Shown: one piece after another, positions 789-27,752 of the stretch
Numbering within the stretch: position 1 is the stretch's first letter
Layout: each line of letters opens with the position of its first letter
Source of the DNA: Escherichia phage vB_EcoM_EC001
Strand: one strand, 5' to 3'
Length of the DNA: 64,000 bases
Sequence record: MN445185.1
Made by a program: the position numbers and the translations under genes
Notes under the pieces: model-generated
What the model saw: the letters and a program-made list of their open reading frames with translations, nothing else
Database searches by the model: none
What the model was told of the DNA's origin: nothing

Positions 789-827
789 CCCCTCTTACCT
801 TCGGGTAAGAGGGTATTGTCTTTTTTT
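789..827 (+). terminator. Rho-independent terminator
   Basis: Stem cccctcttacc / ggtaagaggg with ttcg loop, then a T-run. Confidence 0.75.
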
Positions 828-871
828 ACAGATCAGAACAGTCTTATGCTTTTTGCTTCCACTCCACTAAA

Positions 872-902
872 TTTCAGATATATATTACTTAGGTGAGAGT
901 TA
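872..902 (+). promoter_or_regulatory. Conserved 31-bp promoter-like motif, class 1
   Basis: tttcagatatatattacttaggtgagagtta is identical at 20662-20692; both copies sit after a terminator and about 45 bp before a start codon. Confidence 0.4.
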
Positions 903-947
903 CTACTAAACTCTCTAATCGACTATTAATCTAAAAGGAGTATTCTA

Positions 948-2664: not shown

Positions 2665-2667
2665 TCA

Positions 2668-2705
2668 TTAAGGGGTCTTCGGACCCCTTAATTTTTTGTC
2701 TTTTT
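2668..2705 (+). terminator. Rho-independent terminator
   Basis: Stem ttaaggggtc / gaccccttaa with ttcg loop, then a T-run. Confidence 0.75.
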
Positions 2706-2753: not shown

Positions 2754-3752
2754 ATGAAAACTGTGGCTAAATTGTTTCGCACCAGCATCCGCACTGCCGA
2801 GTTCCGAAATAACGTCGGTACCGATACTGTACGAGCACGCCGCCTAAAAGAGTTTCTAAAGGACGAGACTTATTCTGTTTACGTGGTGAAGAATAAAGAA
2901 ACCTGGGAGGGTTATTTAGTGGCCACCTATCGACACGGTGACCCTACACTAACCTGTCACTATTTTGAGGAGTTTGTACCTGGGGCGTTCGATAAAGTTG
3001 GTTTGGCCCTTGTGCTCGACCATACCGGATTCGAATATATGTCGTGCCCAGCACCTACTGACGATGTTGAACAAAAACTGGTCGAAAAAGGGTTTGTTCT
3101 TTCAGATATCGTTTGGGCATGTCATTCCAAACTGTTTGACAAAGTAATAACCGCACCGGAAATCAAGATTATTTCTGGTGATGCATACGCAGAACTTACC
3201 AAGGATGATAAAGACGTTATCCTGAATTTGATTAGCGGTGCAATTTGCGAAGAGCTAGAATACGATATGCGTGGCTACTATACGCACATTGGTCCGTTAG
3301 CAGAAACAGTAATAGCAAGAATTCAGCACGCTAATGTGGAGACTGCAATTTGGCGAGACGGTCATGATATCGTCGGTATTGCCCAGATGCGCTTGGTTAC
3401 ACCAGGCGTCGTTGAACTTTCTGGTTTAACCGTTGCACCCACGCACCGTAAACGTGGCATTGGTCGCCGGCTAATGGGCGCGCTATTCGATTTCGCACAA
3501 CGTCATTCCGACCAAGTCTATATTGAAACAGCTGCTGATAATAATCCAGCAAATCACCTGTATGGCAACATCTTACGTTGCAAGCAGGTACTGCGTACAC
3601 TAACGTTGAAACGCGATCCTGAACTTATTAGCTGGAAACGGGTGAATGGAAACCGCGCCGATCGTGTGCTGAAAGAAGAACCTAGCTTTCCGGTGGAGAC
3701 TACAACCAGGCTGACTATTAGTGATATGTTTCAATCTGGCATGAGAGGATGA
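2754..3752 (+). CDS. GNAT-family N-acetyltransferase domain protein
   Basis: C-terminal acetyl-CoA motif HRKRGIGRRLMG; GAGGG SD before ATG 2754; the track 5' extension from 2631 runs through the terminator. Confidence 0.7.
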   Translation: MKTVAKLFRTSIRTAEFRNNVGTDTVRARRLKEFLKDETYSVYVVKNKETWEGYLVATYRHGDPTLTCHYFEEFVPGAFDKVGLALVLDHTGFEYMSCPAPTDDVEQKLVEKGFVLSDIVWACHSKLFDKVITAPEIKIISGDAYAELTKDDKDVILNLISGAICEELEYDMRGYYTHIGPLAETVIARIQHANVETAIWRDGHDIVGIAQMRLVTPGVVELSGLTVAPTHRKRGIGRRLMGALFDFAQRHSDQVYIETAADNNPANHLYGNILRCKQVLRTLTLKRDPELISWKRVNGNRADRVLKEEPSFPVETTTRLTISDMFQSGMRG

Positions 3753-7417: not shown

Positions 7418-7709
7418 GCCCACGCTGACGCACCAGGAACTGCACGTCCGTTTTATTCGGGCGTTCACACCCCCGTTAGGTGGTGAGGTACACGATCGTT
7501 CCGTGGTTGCAGAAGTTAAAGGTATCGGCGAAGAACTAATGACACTGTCTAATATTGTGACGGGTGTTGAGTTCACGTTACCGTTAAACGTATTTCGGTT
7601 TATTCCGCGCGTAAACGAAACGCTGCTCATCGACCGTGTACATCATCGGATTATGGCGCAGGTACATCCTAGCCGTAAAGAGTATGTGCGCTTAGAGATG
7701 ATGGTCTAA
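7377..7709 (+). CDS. Hypothetical protein
   Basis: Protein-like C-terminal part of track ORF 7158-7709; start chosen at an internal ATG overlapping the end of the previous gene. Confidence 0.5.
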   Translation: MPQDSFMSNLNPIEPTLTHQELHVRFIRAFTPPLGGEVHDRSVVAEVKGIGEELMTLSNIVTGVEFTLPLNVFRFIPRVNETLLIDRVHHRIMAQVHPSRKEYVRLEMMV

Positions 7710-7717
7710 CGCACGAC

Positions 7718-7747
7718 TTTTCAGATAGATGTTATTTTACTGAACCT
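7718..7747 (+). promoter_or_regulatory. Conserved promoter-like motif, class 2
   Basis: tttcagatagatgttat then 5 nt then tgaacct, repeated at 16118-16146; extended -10-like TGnTATTTT. Confidence 0.4.
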
Positions 7748-7771: not shown

Positions 7772-8077
7772 ATGGCTAAACAATACATAATTGTTAAACG
7801 CGCAGGTACGACTCTGCTGTACGTGGAGAAAGGTTGTGAGAACACTGCAACCGCCAAGAAACTGAATCTGCAAGGGTTTCTGTATCAAGGTCTCCGCGCG
7901 GGTTTGACCATCACTTTTAAAGGCTTACCACAGGCGAAGAATCTGCGCGTCGTACGTGCAGACGGTGTAGAGCGTGCCTTGGTAGCCGACACCCCGGTTG
8001 ATACTATCCCTGCCAGTAAGAAGGCAGCGAAAGCAACCAAGAAAGTCGACGATAAACGCAAACGCGTTGTCGCTTAA
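7772..8077 (+). CDS. Hypothetical protein with basic Lys-rich tail
   Basis: AAGGAAAAAG SD; ORF ends at a terminator. Confidence 0.6.
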   Translation: MAKQYIIVKRAGTTLLYVEKGCENTATAKKLNLQGFLYQGLRAGLTITFKGLPQAKNLRVVRADGVERALVADTPVDTIPASKKAAKATKKVDDKRKRVVA

Positions 8078-8083
8078 GTAGTC

Positions 8084-8124
8084 CCCTACCTAACTTCGGT
8101 TAGGTAGGGTTCTTTTTATTTTTA
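8084..8124 (+). terminator. Rho-independent terminator
   Basis: Stem ccctacctaac / gttaggtaggg with ttcg loop, then a T-run. Confidence 0.75.
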
Positions 8125-16077: not shown

Positions 16078-16115
16078 TACCAGCTATCCTTCGGGGTGGC
16101 TGGTACGCTTTATTT
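16078..16115 (+). terminator. Rho-independent terminator
   Basis: Stem accagc..cc / gg..gctggt with ttcg loop, then a T-run. Confidence 0.55.
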
Positions 16116-16117
16116 TA

Positions 16118-16146
16118 TTTCAGATAGATGTTATCTCAGTGAACCT
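16118..16146 (+). promoter_or_regulatory. Conserved promoter-like motif, class 2
   Basis: Same 17-mer tttcagatagatgttat plus tgaacct as at 7718-7747. Confidence 0.4.
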
Positions 16147-16199
16147 CTGAAATTTACGTTTCAATCAGAGCTTATGTCATGTATTAAGGAGCACTTAAA

Positions 16200-16532
16200 A
16201 TGTCTAAAGTCTATCACATTGCGGTATTGCGTCAGGCAACTGACCTTGAAAGCGACCGTGAACTTCGAATGCAGGAAGCCATTCTGAGCACTGTTAAAGA
16301 ACTTAACCAAGCAAACAATTTCGATGCACGCTTCGAAGCGTTACCAGTAAGCCGCAGTGCTTTCTACGGCAGTCAAATACTGGCAACCCAGTATGCGATG
16401 GCTTTAAGTGACTTGCGCAATAACCCTAGCCCAGAGACCGCGGCGAAGATGAACAAACTGTCGCTATGGATGAATAACCTGGATGTCCCCGCAGCATCCA
16501 CTGTAAGCGGTTTGGGGGTGGTCAATGGGTAG
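16200..16532 (+). CDS. Hypothetical protein
   Basis: AAGGAG SD. Confidence 0.6.
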   Translation: MSKVYHIAVLRQATDLESDRELRMQEAILSTVKELNQANNFDARFEALPVSRSAFYGSQILATQYAMALSDLRNNPSPETAAKMNKLSLWMNNLDVPAASTVSGLGVVNG

Positions 16533-20604: not shown

Positions 20605-20641
20605 ACCCTACTCCTTCGGGAGTAGGGTTTCTTCTTTTTTG
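20605..20641 (+). terminator. Rho-independent terminator
   Basis: Stem accctactcc / ggagtagggt with ttcg loop, then a T-run. Confidence 0.75.
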
Positions 20642-20661
20642 CCTAGTCCGATTACAATTAT

Positions 20662-20692
20662 TTTCAGATATATATTACTTAGGTGAGAGTTA
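20662..20692 (+). promoter_or_regulatory. Conserved 31-bp promoter-like motif, class 1
   Basis: Identical to 872-902. Confidence 0.4.
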
Positions 20693-20738
20693 ACAATTAA
20701 CTCTTATCTAATCGACCATTATCTTAAGGAGTTTTAAC

Positions 20739-21185
20739 ATGTACATTCTGAATAACGAACTTACTAAATACGCTAGCAAAAACCCGATTATGGTTTCTTT
20801 CCTAATCGTGATGGCGGCCAACAAACAAGACCCTAGCGAATTCACTACTGAGGACTTCGAAGAGATTATCGCCAACGCCAAAGAAGCCACGTTCCAGACT
20901 ACGGAACCCACACGTGACGAGTTCCCTCTAGGTGAAGCCGGTGACGTAATGTTTAACGACATGGTTGCTTCGTATTACATCAGTAGACGTGGTATGGAAA
21001 TCGAATACGACGAACTTCCTACTAGCAGCTTTGCTGAAATGATTCGTGATTATCGTCGTCAAGTTGTCTCTGACGATGTTGTAAAGAAATACATGGCACA
21101 AATCAGTCCATTCAGTCTTGAATTCGAAAACCGCGCGGTTGCCTTAGCGACGCATCGCCTGCGTTTAGAAAAAGAAGTACACTAA
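20739..21185 (+). CDS. Hypothetical acidic protein
   Basis: AAGGAG SD. Confidence 0.6.
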   Translation: MYILNNELTKYASKNPIMVSFLIVMAANKQDPSEFTTEDFEEIIANAKEATFQTTEPTRDEFPLGEAGDVMFNDMVASYYISRRGMEIEYDELPTSSFAEMIRDYRRQVVSDDVVKKYMAQISPFSLEFENRAVALATHRLRLEKEVH

Positions 21186-21246: not shown

Positions 21247-21465
21247 ATGCGCAACCTGTTCTCCAAATCTGAAATCAAACCTGTTGTTGAAACCGCAGCC
21301 AAACGTAAGCCCGACATGATTGACCTGCTGCTGAAAATGTCTGCAGCAGAAGCCAAAGCTTTCATGAATACAATGAAAGACGACGAAAAAAAGATTGACA
21401 ATGTTGAAGTAACCTATGGTGTTAAAGACCGCCCAAAGAATAACGACCTTGTGTGGGTCTGTTAA
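21247..21465 (+). CDS. Small hypothetical protein
   Basis: AAAGGAA SD. Confidence 0.55.
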   Translation: MRNLFSKSEIKPVVETAAKRKPDMIDLLLKMSAAEAKAFMNTMKDDEKKIDNVEVTYGVKDRPKNNDLVWVC

Positions 21466-21494: not shown

Positions 21495-21525
21495 AAGGGA
21501 GCTTCGGCTCCCCTTCTTTTTTTGT
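21495..21525 (+). terminator. Rho-independent terminator
   Basis: Stem aagggagc / gctcccctt with ttcg loop, then a long T-rich tract. Confidence 0.65.
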
Positions 21526-23304: not shown

Positions 23305-24150
23305 ATGCCACTTTTAGCCACAGCTGAAAAGATTATTATCGCGGAGGTTAACGTCGAAAACAATCTCGACTTAAAAGTCGAGGATGTTGTTTTTGGTGTC
23401 CCTGCGATTCCAACGTCTGACGAAGACTTGGCAAAAGCTAACGGTCACAACGCGATGGTGCGTATTCAGGCATTGGCCACGGCTAATGCTATCGGTGCCA
23501 CTACCGTGTACTACGATCGTGTTGACTTCGCAGACATGTTTACCGATCCGGACGGGATTCAACCTTTACGTGTTCCTGCACGTCTCGATGCTGTTTACCA
23601 GATGCATGACGTGGTCGGGTTAATTAACCAGTATTACGGTCTCAGCCTTAAACCTGCAGATGTGGTGAATACCGAAATCGACAGGAAGACATGGCGTGTG
23701 GATCTGATTGCCACGCCCTCTTCTTTAGGTTGGATAGGGCAACAACAGGTACAGCTGTTACCAGGCGATGCGTTGCTTCCTGCAAACTTCGAACCCTTAA
23801 CAGTGATGCCTTACGAGTATCCGTATTTCAACATCAAGGTCGGTCAAGGTGCAGTTTATTCGTATCCCTGGCGCTTTGATAATTTCGCGGAGGAATTTCA
23901 ACGACTAGGTGCTGCGATAACCACAGAACGTCTGGCACAGATTCTCAAAACGGTCACCGGTGATAACTGGACAACATACCGTAACCCTATCGACTTTAAC
24001 CTTCGTGAAGCCGTCGTCGTCTATAACGGGCGTAACAAAGCGGAATTACCAACCAACCCAGCAGTCGACAACGTGCTGATTGTGGAGCTGTCGTTGTACT
24101 GTCTGAATTTTGGCGGGCGTTTGTATTTGCATTACAACGACCCTGATTAA
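23305..24150 (+). CDS. Paralog-family protein 3
   Basis: AAGGA SD; ends LYLHYNDPD. Confidence 0.65.
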   Translation: MPLLATAEKIIIAEVNVENNLDLKVEDVVFGVPAIPTSDEDLAKANGHNAMVRIQALATANAIGATTVYYDRVDFADMFTDPDGIQPLRVPARLDAVYQMHDVVGLINQYYGLSLKPADVVNTEIDRKTWRVDLIATPSSLGWIGQQQVQLLPGDALLPANFEPLTVMPYEYPYFNIKVGQGAVYSYPWRFDNFAEEFQRLGAAITTERLAQILKTVTGDNWTTYRNPIDFNLREAVVVYNGRNKAELPTNPAVDNVLIVELSLYCLNFGGRLYLHYNDPD

Positions 24151-24171
24151 TCCTGAGTAAAGGAAGTAAGA

Positions 24172-25083
24172 ATGAAACCTTTAAACAAAACGTCCGATAA
24201 GCTGGTTCTGGATTTTATTAATGAGAAAAACCCAGACGCAGAACTGGAACTTTCTAAAATAACGCTCGGCACACCGACCCCTATTACCGATGAAGGTGCT
24301 GATCGCAATACCAGCATGACCCTGACTGCGAAAAAGAACTCCGGGTACATCGGTACTCAGGACGTGACTTATAATCGCCTGGAAGGCGGTGCGCTGTTCC
24401 GTAATGTAACCGCATACCTCGACGTTAAACTGCCGAAAACCACCACCGACCTGCTGACGACCCTGAACACCCAATACGGATTGAAGCTGACCGAAGACGA
24501 TATCGTTCCGGCGGCTATTCCGGAAAATACCAACCCGCCGCTGACTAACCCGAACGATCCGGACCCAGCACCGGTTGACCACGTCATTACCTTCAAAGAA
24601 GACTGCTACGCTTATCTGGGCAGCATCCCGGTTAAAATCGGTGCTAAGCCTCAGGTTGGTGAACGTCTGAGTCTGGTGGTAACACAAACCAAGCTCGACG
24701 GCTTGGTTTACCCAGATGGTCCAAGCGAAGCGAAGGGTCAGGGCTACATCTACTCTTACGGTGTAGACTGCACAGCAATCGCAGCATTCCTGAAAGTACA
24801 GGCGAAAGGTGTTATCGCTGGCGACTCTGCATTCCCGGTTGAGCTGAATAAAGTTGTGCCGGAACTGTGGGTTGCATCTGATGAGCCTGCGGATTATAAC
24901 CTGAAAGGCGCTAACGTGTTGTACGTTGGTTCTACTACTGACGATGGCACTGCTTCAGGCGACGAACCTAAGAAACCGGTTGAAGGTGCAAACACTGCTT
25001 ACAACCAGGTTCTGCTGCTGCAGCTGGATGACACTCTGTGCACCAACTTCCAGGGTATCATGTACCTGCACTTTAATGCCTAA
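24172..25083 (+). CDS. Paralog-family protein 4
   Basis: AAGGAAG SD; ends MYLHFNA. Confidence 0.65.
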   Translation: MKPLNKTSDKLVLDFINEKNPDAELELSKITLGTPTPITDEGADRNTSMTLTAKKNSGYIGTQDVTYNRLEGGALFRNVTAYLDVKLPKTTTDLLTTLNTQYGLKLTEDDIVPAAIPENTNPPLTNPNDPDPAPVDHVITFKEDCYAYLGSIPVKIGAKPQVGERLSLVVTQTKLDGLVYPDGPSEAKGQGYIYSYGVDCTAIAAFLKVQAKGVIAGDSAFPVELNKVVPELWVASDEPADYNLKGANVLYVGSTTDDGTASGDEPKKPVEGANTAYNQVLLLQLDDTLCTNFQGIMYLHFNA

Positions 25084-25096
25084 TTAGGCCTCGCTG

Positions 25097-25136
25097 GGAG
25101 GAGGAAATCCTCCTCCTGGCTACTCCTTTCTTTTTT
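25097..25136 (+). terminator. Putative terminator
   Basis: Stem ggaggagg / cctcctcc, T-run about 10 nt downstream. Confidence 0.5.
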
Positions 25137-25152
25137 GGCCGAGGAGGCTATT

Positions 25153-25992
25153 ATGGCTTTATATAGTCTGTCTCAGCGACAATATCTGTACGATGCGATT
25201 AATGCCGAAAACCCGGATGCTGTGCTACCGATGGGTTTAGACAATGCTATCATCGGCACGCCGAAAGCAATCACACCGACAGCAAGCGGTGCCAATACTG
25301 AGATTATCATTCGTGGTCGTCAAGGTCGTGGCTATATCGGTCCTCAGACGTTCCGTTATAAGCGCTTGTCGCTGAACGACTTATTTAAGAACATGACACC
25401 TCAGGTAACTGCACCGAATGCCTACGGTTGGTTGAACGTGGAGTCGAAACGTACTGCGTTTGCGCAGAACCTGAACGGTCGTTATGGATTAAACCTGGTT
25501 GCAGATGATATCCCAGAACAATACGTTTATCTGAACGTAAACAACACGATGCGTATTAACGCTAGCTGTATCCAATACACTGGCAGCATCACCTTTATGT
25601 CTATCCGGGGTAAGAATAGCCTCGAAGACCTCGTGGTAAACGACATCTTGTTGGCTTTGAACCACCCTGCAGCAGCAAGCACTGGTAAGAAATACATGGG
25701 CTTCTTGACGTACGGGGAAGACTTTACTGACGAAGTGCAGGTTATGGCCTCGTTTAAGAACGGGCGAATGGACGTAGGAAGTAACTTTGATTTGGGTTAC
25801 ACGTCCAATCTGATGGCCACATTGGTCGCACGTGGGGTACCGTCGTTTGATCCGACGAACTGCACAATTACCCGCTACAAAACGAGTGAGTTGGCGACCG
25901 CCAATAAAGCGTACGATAACGTATTGCTGATTACCGGCATTCAGAACGACCCGAAAGTAATCGGCGAGTGTATGTTGCACTACAACAACTAG
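25153..25992 (+). CDS. Paralog-family protein 5
   Basis: ATG 25153 with GAGGAGG SD; track used TTG 25135; ends MLHYNN. Confidence 0.65.
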   Translation: MALYSLSQRQYLYDAINAENPDAVLPMGLDNAIIGTPKAITPTASGANTEIIIRGRQGRGYIGPQTFRYKRLSLNDLFKNMTPQVTAPNAYGWLNVESKRTAFAQNLNGRYGLNLVADDIPEQYVYLNVNNTMRINASCIQYTGSITFMSIRGKNSLEDLVVNDILLALNHPAAASTGKKYMGFLTYGEDFTDEVQVMASFKNGRMDVGSNFDLGYTSNLMATLVARGVPSFDPTNCTITRYKTSELATANKAYDNVLLITGIQNDPKVIGECMLHYNN

Positions 25993-27726: not shown

Positions 27727-27752
27727 GGGGCTCTTCGGAGCCCCCTCTTTTG
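27727..27752 (+). terminator. Rho-independent terminator
   Basis: Stem ggggctc / gagcccc with ttcg loop, then a T-rich tract. Confidence 0.6.

Follow-up and report, generated by a model that had tools for sequence, protein, structure and literature searches.

The early-promoter motifs of giant phages that encode their own RNA polymerases are said to have been first predicted or defined by Lavysh in 2016 and by Ceyssens in 2014. All RNAP-encoding jumbo phages carry an AT-rich motif of ~10 nt, centred near -10, upstream of their early operons. This motif is an early promoter wherever transcripts have been mapped, and according to a review bioinformatic searches can detect it in all phages of the group (PMC7598289). 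In AR9 the early promoter has the form AAATATATATTAT-(6N)-G+1, and the starts of phiKZ and phiR1-37 are also located 6 nt downstream of the element (PMC5312081). Conservation at -10, -20 and -30 characterizes the early promoters of 201phi2-1 (PMC11512511) and phiKZ (PMC8244752), and the phiKZ early promoters are active without the host RNAP (PMC7598289; PMC13282480). As a published rule, the nvRNAP genes belong to the early class (PMC7598289; PMC13282480).

Phages of the SPN3US group are 240-kb jumbo phages of the genus Seoulvirus that are related to phiKZ and encode two multisubunit RNA polymerases, a virion and a non-virion (nvRNAP) enzyme. The SPN3US virion contains a five-subunit virion RNA polymerase (vRNAP) composed of gp42, gp218, gp240, gp241 and gp244, and the subunits of the nvRNAP include gp35 and gp77 (PMC5105663). 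The window analysed here is a 64,000-nucleotide stretch of Escherichia phage vB_EcoM_EC001 (MN445185.1) that over its first 8 kb shares 95-97% identity with Salmonella phage SPN3US and some 40 relatives. An original prediction for this window had described two classes of repeated promoter-like motifs and suggested that they might be phage-specific promoters or a shared operator. The present analysis compares these repeats with the early promoters of the phiKZ and AR9 type.

Results and discussion

The motif and its family

The 31-mer TTTCAGATATATATTACTTAGGTGAGAGTTA, designated class 1, had been reported as identical at 872-902 and 20662-20692, and a window search confirmed both copies, with no third match in the window at up to three mismatches (0 expected). 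Class 2 had been described as a 17-mer followed by TGAACCT. Both parts are present: two identical copies of the 17-mer TTTCAGATAGATGTTAT lie at 7719-7735 and 16118-16134, each followed by TGAACCT after five variable bases. The heptamer is not class-defining and was rejected as a class-2 signature: it is common to the two window class-2 sites only, whereas other sites with the class-2 core ATAGATGTTAT differ after +1, as does the ortholog of gene 7772, in which the P2 core (Table 1) is kept and TGAACCT is not.

All four sites are intergenic. An independent repeat finder placed them in one in-register repeat family (D2) and placed the class-1 pair in a 50-nt repeat family of 86% identity (D3). 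The motif ends 46, 25, 54 and 47 nt before the start codon at the sites at 872, 7719, 16118 and 20662, respectively; the proposed distance of about 45-55 bp thus holds for three of them and not for the site at 7719. The sequence TTTCAGATA occurs five times in the window, always on the + strand, against an expectation of 0.49, and the copy at 3100, which lies within an ORF and lacks the extended motif, was dropped as a chance match. The short core TATATTAC is unenriched in the window (four copies against 1.85 expected) and is not informative; the extended motif alone is.

The complete SPN3US genome (NC_027402) was assembled and then searched for the motif. The degenerate core ATANATNTTAY matches 19 sites on the + strand and one on the - strand, the latter within a gene. 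A 40-nt PWM built from the degenerate-core sites in SPN3US identifies 23 sites in this genome scoring at least 21.9 bits, and no site scores between 12 and 21.9 bits. Every one of the 23 is on the + strand, and 22 have a + strand gene shortly downstream; roughly half follow a T-run or a hairpin. The sole intragenic copy, at 25228, is full-scoring and lies within gene 23886-25493, with the next gene 261 nt downstream. In the window the same PWM finds exactly four sites, the two copies of each class.

The SPN3US sites give the consensus yTCnAAA-N4-TTTCAG-ATAGATATTAy-CTnnGT-G-A, and the family as a whole, of ~35 bp, reads yTCnAAA-N4-TTTCAG-ATAKATRTTAY-CTnnGT-G(+1). Information peaks at about -30, -20 and -10 relative to the invariant G, with yTCnAAA at -33 to -27 (the A at -29 being invariant), TTTCAG at -23 to -18 and ATAKATRTTAY, which is nearly invariant among the 23 SPN3US and four window sites, at -17 to -7. 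Six nucleotides past the AT-rich element, all 23 SPN3US sites have a G, as do 96 of the 98 distinct sites collected from contigs of related jumbo phages. The latter were recovered from IMG/VR with the 40-nt PWM, since scans with cores of 14-15 nt were swamped by chance matches in unrelated contigs and the loci had to be filtered with the longer matrix.

The two classes are variants of one promoter family, as the 23-site PWM indicates, and their separation in the original prediction was an over-splitting. The window contains only the variants TATATTAC (class 1, twice) and ATAGATGTTAT (class 2, twice), and the commonest variant of the family, ATAGATATTATCT, is absent from it. In P1 an A-rich element at -33 to -27 is followed by TTTCAG at -23 to -18 and ATATATATTAC at -17 to -7, and its core is identical to that at 20662-20692. 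The spacing to the predicted start is constant, with AGATATATATTAC-TTAGGT-G at 895 and 20685, AGATAGATGTTAT-TTTACT-G at 7742 and AGATAGATGTTAT-CTCAGT-G at 16141. The class-2 promoters have a G inside the AT-rich block and lower scores (34-39 bits), suggesting that they are possibly weaker or differently timed.

Table 1. Coordinates of predicted promoters, leader elements, terminator-like hairpins and transcription units in the window
Feature	Position	Strand	Details
Terminator-like hairpin	790-813	+	CCCTCTTACC-TTCG-GGTAAGAGGG and T-run; closes upstream unit; 58 nt before class-1 31-mer
Early promoter P1 (class 1)	862-895	+	PWM 49.5 bits; predicted start G895
Predicted P1 unit	895 to ~2692	+	Genes 948-1313 (HTH_3 protein), 1325-1711, 1738-2664
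Predicted P1 5' hairpin	895-915	+	GAGAGTT (895-901), loop ACTACTA (902-908), AACTCTC (909-915); MFE -7.8 kcal/mol
Leader box and Shine-Dalgarno	917-940	+	AATCGACTAT (917-926), AAGGAG (935-940); before ATG 948 of HTH_3 gene 948-1313
Terminator-like hairpin	2667-2692	+	Ends P1 unit
Early promoter P2 (class 2)	7709-7742	+	Core ATAGATGTTAT; PWM 34.4 bits; predicted start G7742
Predicted P2 unit	7742 to ~8109	+	One gene, 7772-8077
Terminator-like hairpin	8084-8109	+	After P2 gene 7772-8077
Terminator-like hairpin	16078-16105	+	13 nt before P3 motif
Early promoter P3 (class 2)	16108-16141	+	PWM 39.4 bits; predicted start G16141
Predicted P3 unit	16141 to ~20628	+	About ten small genes, first 16200-16532
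Terminator-like hairpin	20605-20628	+	ACCCTACTCC-TTCG-GGAGTAGGGT and T-run; ends P3 unit; 34 nt before class-1 31-mer
Early promoter P4 (class 1)	20652-20685	+	PWM 48.4 bits; predicted start G20685
Predicted P4 unit	20685 to ~21512	+	Genes 20739-21185, 21247-21465
Predicted P4 5' hairpin	20685-20705	+	GAGAGTTAA (20685-20693), loop CAA, TTAACTCTT (20697-20705); MFE -7.5 kcal/mol
Leader box and Shine-Dalgarno	20710-20731	+	AATCGACCAT (20710-20719), AAGGAG (20726-20731); before ATG 20739
Terminator-like hairpin	21497-21512	+	Ends P4 unit

Comparison with the early promoters of phiKZ, AR9 and 201phi2-1

The class-1 sequences of the window (aaatttcagataTATATTACttaggtG and tttcagataTATATTACttaggtG) align base for base, and are near-identical, with the sequences found 5' of gp54 (tttgagattTATATTACtaaattG), gp68 (tttgagatcTATATTACtaacatG) and gp58.1 (tttcagattTATATTACtaaggtG) in 130 kb of phiKZ, class 1 being the variant nearest to the phiKZ consensus TATATTAC. 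The phiKZ gp54 gene has a primary transcription start site with the early motif (PMC8244752). The features shared with the phiKZ early promoters (PMC8244752, PMC10914365) include this core, the preceding TTT(C/G)AGAT block, an A-rich -30 region and a G located 6 nt past the core, as well as a copy number of about 23-32 per genome and a position before early operons, including those of the nvRNAP genes. The sites described here differ in belonging to a Salmonella Seoulvirus group in which ATAGATATTATCT, rather than TATATTAC, is the commonest SPN3US variant, in the G inside the AT-rich block of class 2 and in having predicted rather than mapped starts.

The AR9 promoters (PMC5312081) are similar in their ATATATTAT-type element, the 6-nt spacing to a G start, the extended consensus and the use of an injected multisubunit RNAP; however, AR9 has uracil DNA and a Gram-positive host, and the blocks upstream of the core differ. 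As described, the 201phi2-1 promoters also share the conservation at -10, -20 and -30 and a location upstream of small hypothetical genes, although only six such promoters were detected experimentally (PMC11512511).

The distribution of the motif over the SPN3US polymerase genes follows the same pattern. Copies are located directly before the nvRNAP genes, namely gp34/35 (28971), the gp76-77 operon (72488 and 72686) and the gp22-23 operon (15616 and 15709), and no copy was found in SPN3US directly before the vRNAP genes gp42, gp218, gp240/241 and gp244. This arrangement, in which the motif precedes the nvRNAP and not the vRNAP genes, matches that in phiKZ and AR9.

At the level of sequence, the sites have every feature of the phiKZ/AR9 early-promoter family, which supports the suggestion that they are phage-specific promoters. 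The four sites are very probably early promoters of this type that are read by an injected multisubunit vRNAP. The searched literature contained no start-site, timing, rifampicin or RNA-seq study of SPN3US-like phages, and the motif strings returned unrelated papers only; the polymerase, the +1 positions and the early timing are therefore assigned by analogy, with G895, G7742, G16141 and G20685 as the predicted starts. In the corresponding mechanism the vRNAP would be carried in the capsid and injected with the phage DNA, would recognize the AT-rich block at -17 to -7, TTTCAG near -20 and the A-rich block near -30, and would initiate at the invariant G located 6 nt past the AT-rich block.

Terminators and predicted transcription units

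From each promoter a short series of small early genes, delimited by hairpin terminators, would be transcribed (Table 1). The proposal that every site follows a terminator is borne out at three of the four (hairpins 790-813, 16078-16105 and 20605-20628), whereas the P2 site at 7719 lies 9 nt past the stop codon of the upstream ORF without a terminator. A C-TTCG-G tetraloop is present in almost all of the terminator-like hairpins of the + strand, comprising those listed in Table 1 and others at 63-84 and 27727-27744. The terminators may thus follow a conserved design, and the same has been reported for phiKZ and 201phi2-1.

Positions 1704-2243, within the P1 unit, are a perfect tandem duplication of 270 bp (copies 100% identical) that takes in the start of ORF 1738-2664 together with its ribosome-binding site. 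It explains the surplus of ~270 bases that the window has over SPN3US and the length of this ORF, which encodes 308 amino acids compared with 218 in the SPN3US homolog. The duplication could be a very recent event or an assembly artefact.

The class-1 leader

The conserved sequence downstream of class 1 (aactct..taatcgac) that had been noted along with the 31-mer is indeed conserved; however, it is part of the transcript and not of the promoter, and belongs to a 5' hairpin and to a box adjoining the ribosome-binding site. The stems of both window hairpins begin at nucleotide 1 and take in the predicted +1. Among 45 distinct, mutually related class-1 sites of related phages, 27 have a perfect stem of at least 6 bp beginning at nucleotides 1-3, compared with a mean of 4.8 sites (maximum 12) in shuffled sequences and with 14% of genomic GAGA[GT] positions. 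At sites of the commonest promoter variant such stems are hardly enriched (10 of 44). The stem sequences vary, with pairs such as GAGATTAC/GTAATCTC, GAGCATTGA/TCAATGCTT, GAGCGTTA/TAACGCTT, GAGGAT/ATCCTC and GATAGA/TCTATC among others. When the 5' arms were swapped between these phylogenetically non-independent sites, total pairing fell from 124 to 95.9 +/- 6.9 bp and none of 2000 permutations reached 124. This covariation of the arms favours an RNA structure over a protein-binding DNA sequence.

In thermodynamic terms the individual hairpins are modest, with z-scores of -0.7 and -1.1 that are not significant, and none of the four leaders reached significance when folded as a single sequence. 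RNAalifold detected no consensus structure in an ungapped alignment of 20 leaders, a result that arises from the differing loop lengths in such an alignment, and was replaced by the alignment-free stem counts and arm swaps. A comparison of the whole window with Rfam gave no matching family. Where the HTH gene has an ortholog of only 59% protein identity, the terminator, promoter, stem and box are retained almost unchanged, with a different loop; preservation of the cassette at such low protein identity indicates selection on the cassette sequence. Orthologs of two downstream genes occur in other contigs without the promoter.

Stems of at least 6 bp were found at only ~5 of 18 early-type sites in 130 kb of phiKZ, so that early mRNAs of phiKZ do not in general carry the 5' hairpin. 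One of these sites belongs to gp54, which encodes the nuclear shell protein, where an 8-bp stem is located at the predicted +1 of the mRNA (NC_004629, 45582-45609).

Stem-loops at the 5' terminus protect mRNA from 5'-end-dependent decay (RppH/RNase E), and the leaders of Escherichia coli ompA and T7 gene 10 are stabilizing elements of this kind. The class-1 leader resembles them in that the stem begins at the predicted first base, or no more than 2 nt from it, and has an unpaired ribosome-binding region after it; it has no sequence relation to them, its start is predicted and stabilization is proposed by analogy. Shielding of the mRNA 5' end from RppH/RNase E decay would be the most likely function of the class-1 hairpin.

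Inverted repeats are also a feature of the early promoters of N4, the vRNAP of which is a single-subunit enzyme that uses a promoter hairpin upstream of the start as a recognition element in DNA. The injected virion polymerase and the association of an inverted repeat with early promoters are common to both systems. However, the inverted repeat described here lies downstream of the predicted +1 and is variable in sequence, and most members of the promoter family lack it; its position rules out an N4-type hairpin promoter.

Instead of stabilizing the mRNA, the class-1 hairpin (+1 to +21) could attenuate transcription close to the promoter or cause the phage polymerase to pause there. In many relatives a T-rich tract immediately follows the stem (e.g. 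AATCTTTTA, AATGCTTTTA and ACTCTTTTAC), at the SPN3US class-1 promoter at 165689 the 5' hairpin is succeeded by a strong terminator ahead of the gene, and premature termination just past start sites has been reported in 201phi2-1 (PMC11512511). In the two window copies, however, the stem is not followed by a T-run (CTCTAATCG and CTCTTATCTAATCG), the pairing is AU-rich and weak (~ -7.5 kcal/mol) and the T-richness is partly forced by complementarity to the conserved GAGAG start. An attenuator is thus improbable and is the weaker alternative to protection of the 5' end.

In SPN3US, positions 165689-165780 of NC_027402 comprise a class-1 promoter, a 5' hairpin, a terminator (GGCTACC-TTCG-GGTAGCC and a T-run) and then an AATCGAC box and gene. 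This arrangement predicts a transcript of ~55 nt, which might be a small RNA or the product of an attenuator; short RNAs derived from 5'UTRs have been described in 201phi2-1 (PMC11512511).

The second part of the class-1 leader is the box AATCGACyAT, seven SPN3US copies of which lie 27-29 nt ahead of a start codon. The form (T)AATCGACyAT(TA) also precedes operon-internal SPN3US genes that have no nearby promoter (57148, 167594 and 224199), indicating that the box tracks the start codon and not the promoter. A further occurrence is located at 112246 in SPN3US. From its placement, the box is most likely to be a translation-initiation element or an RNA-level signal and not to serve transcription initiation.

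Hairpin and box together could constitute a dedicated RNA signal on a subset of immediate-early mRNAs that is more than a generic stabilizer and provides protection, export from the early infection vesicle or preferential translation, possibly via a phage RNA-binding factor, although this more elaborate role appears rather unlikely. No description of the covarying 5' hairpin or of the box at a fixed distance was found in the searched literature. These are the only parts of the arrangement with some novelty and are possibly undescribed, the promoter itself being a further example, in Seoulvirus, of a known type of element.

Another short repeat was observed in early leaders. The 13-nt sequence AAATTTACGTTTC is located at +10/+11 of two of them, at 16150-16162 in the window (start 16141) and at 92569 in SPN3US (site 92542), with a further position at 109921 in SPN3US. 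The similar sequence GAAATTTACG is found in leaders of related contigs, in some of which it forms the loop and 3' arm of the 5' hairpin.

Alternative explanations for the repeated sites

The sites could alternatively be early promoters dependent on the host sigma-70, as in T4, with TATTAT or TATTAC as a -10-like element and an AT-rich, UP-like upstream region. The hexamer at -12 to -7 (TATTAC, TATTAT or GTTATy) matches TATAAT at four or five of six positions and is 6 nt from the conserved G, the correct distance for a -10 box, and the region upstream of it is A/T-rich; judged by sequence alone, the host polymerase might use the sites. A consensus scan nevertheless found no -35/-10 pair on the + strand at any of the four sites, only the -10-like hexamer, in agreement with the original observation that they do not fit a textbook sigma-70 promoter; the best -35-like hexamer (TTSnAA) has a spacing of 15 bp. 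Furthermore, invariant positions lie outside the expected contacts (AGATAG before the hexamer, CT after it and the A at -29), the motif carries far more information than host promoters do and the sites are nearly identical to phiKZ early promoters, which are independent of the host RNAP (PMC7598289; PMC13282480). Dependence on sigma-70 is consequently very unlikely, and recognition by the vRNAP remains the preferred reading.

A second possibility is that the repeats are mainly recombination cassettes that combine a terminator with a promoter and shuffle early genes, in the manner of the PeSLs (PMC2839356, PMC4122927), and that the identity of the class-1 copies reflects recent gene conversion and not functional selection. 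Terminator-promoter composites are indeed present at three of the four sites, the class-1 copies are identical over 31 bp with differing flanks and the promoter is lacking at the two downstream-gene orthologs mentioned above. The similarity to T4-type PeSLs is one of layout only: in both, small modules that join a terminator stem-loop to an early promoter recur between groups of small early genes. PeSL promoters are of the sigma-70 type, and one of the four sites described here has no terminator. No cassette-bounded indel was seen between the window and SPN3US, the sole indel noted being the internal 270-bp duplication. In addition, conservation of these positions extends beyond the genus to phiKZ, and conservation in the ortholog with 59% protein identity points to selection on the sequence itself. 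Shuffling as the main function of the repeats is hardly plausible, and a cassette role would be compatible with, and secondary to, promoter function.

Almost no weight can be given to the remaining possibility, that of a shared operator for a phage DNA-binding regulator such as the HTH_3 protein of 948-1313: although the HTH_3 gene is the first gene after P1 and the main variant AGATAGATATTATCT contains a 5-bp dyad (AGATA-N5-TATCT), 23 of 23 copies have the same orientation and keep a constant spacing to the genes and to the invariant G, class 1 has only a degraded form of the dyad (TACTT/TACCT), conservation is asymmetric over ~35 bp and phiKZ has the same motif as a promoter defined by experiment. 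The promoter reading leaves room for a regulator that may also bind there.

Conclusions

The result is a testable map of early transcription, with four predicted starts in the window and 23 genome-wide in SPN3US, a phage of a group that serves as a genetic model for giant phages. On this map the early units are short and bounded by terminators, and the nvRNAP genes lie behind the same motif. The core of the predicted vRNAP promoter is conserved between Pseudomonas phiKZ and the Salmonella Seoulvirus phages, and the motif may be of use in annotating other phages of the group and as a source of orthogonal expression parts. The 5' hairpin and the leader box would bear on the survival and translation of early mRNAs.
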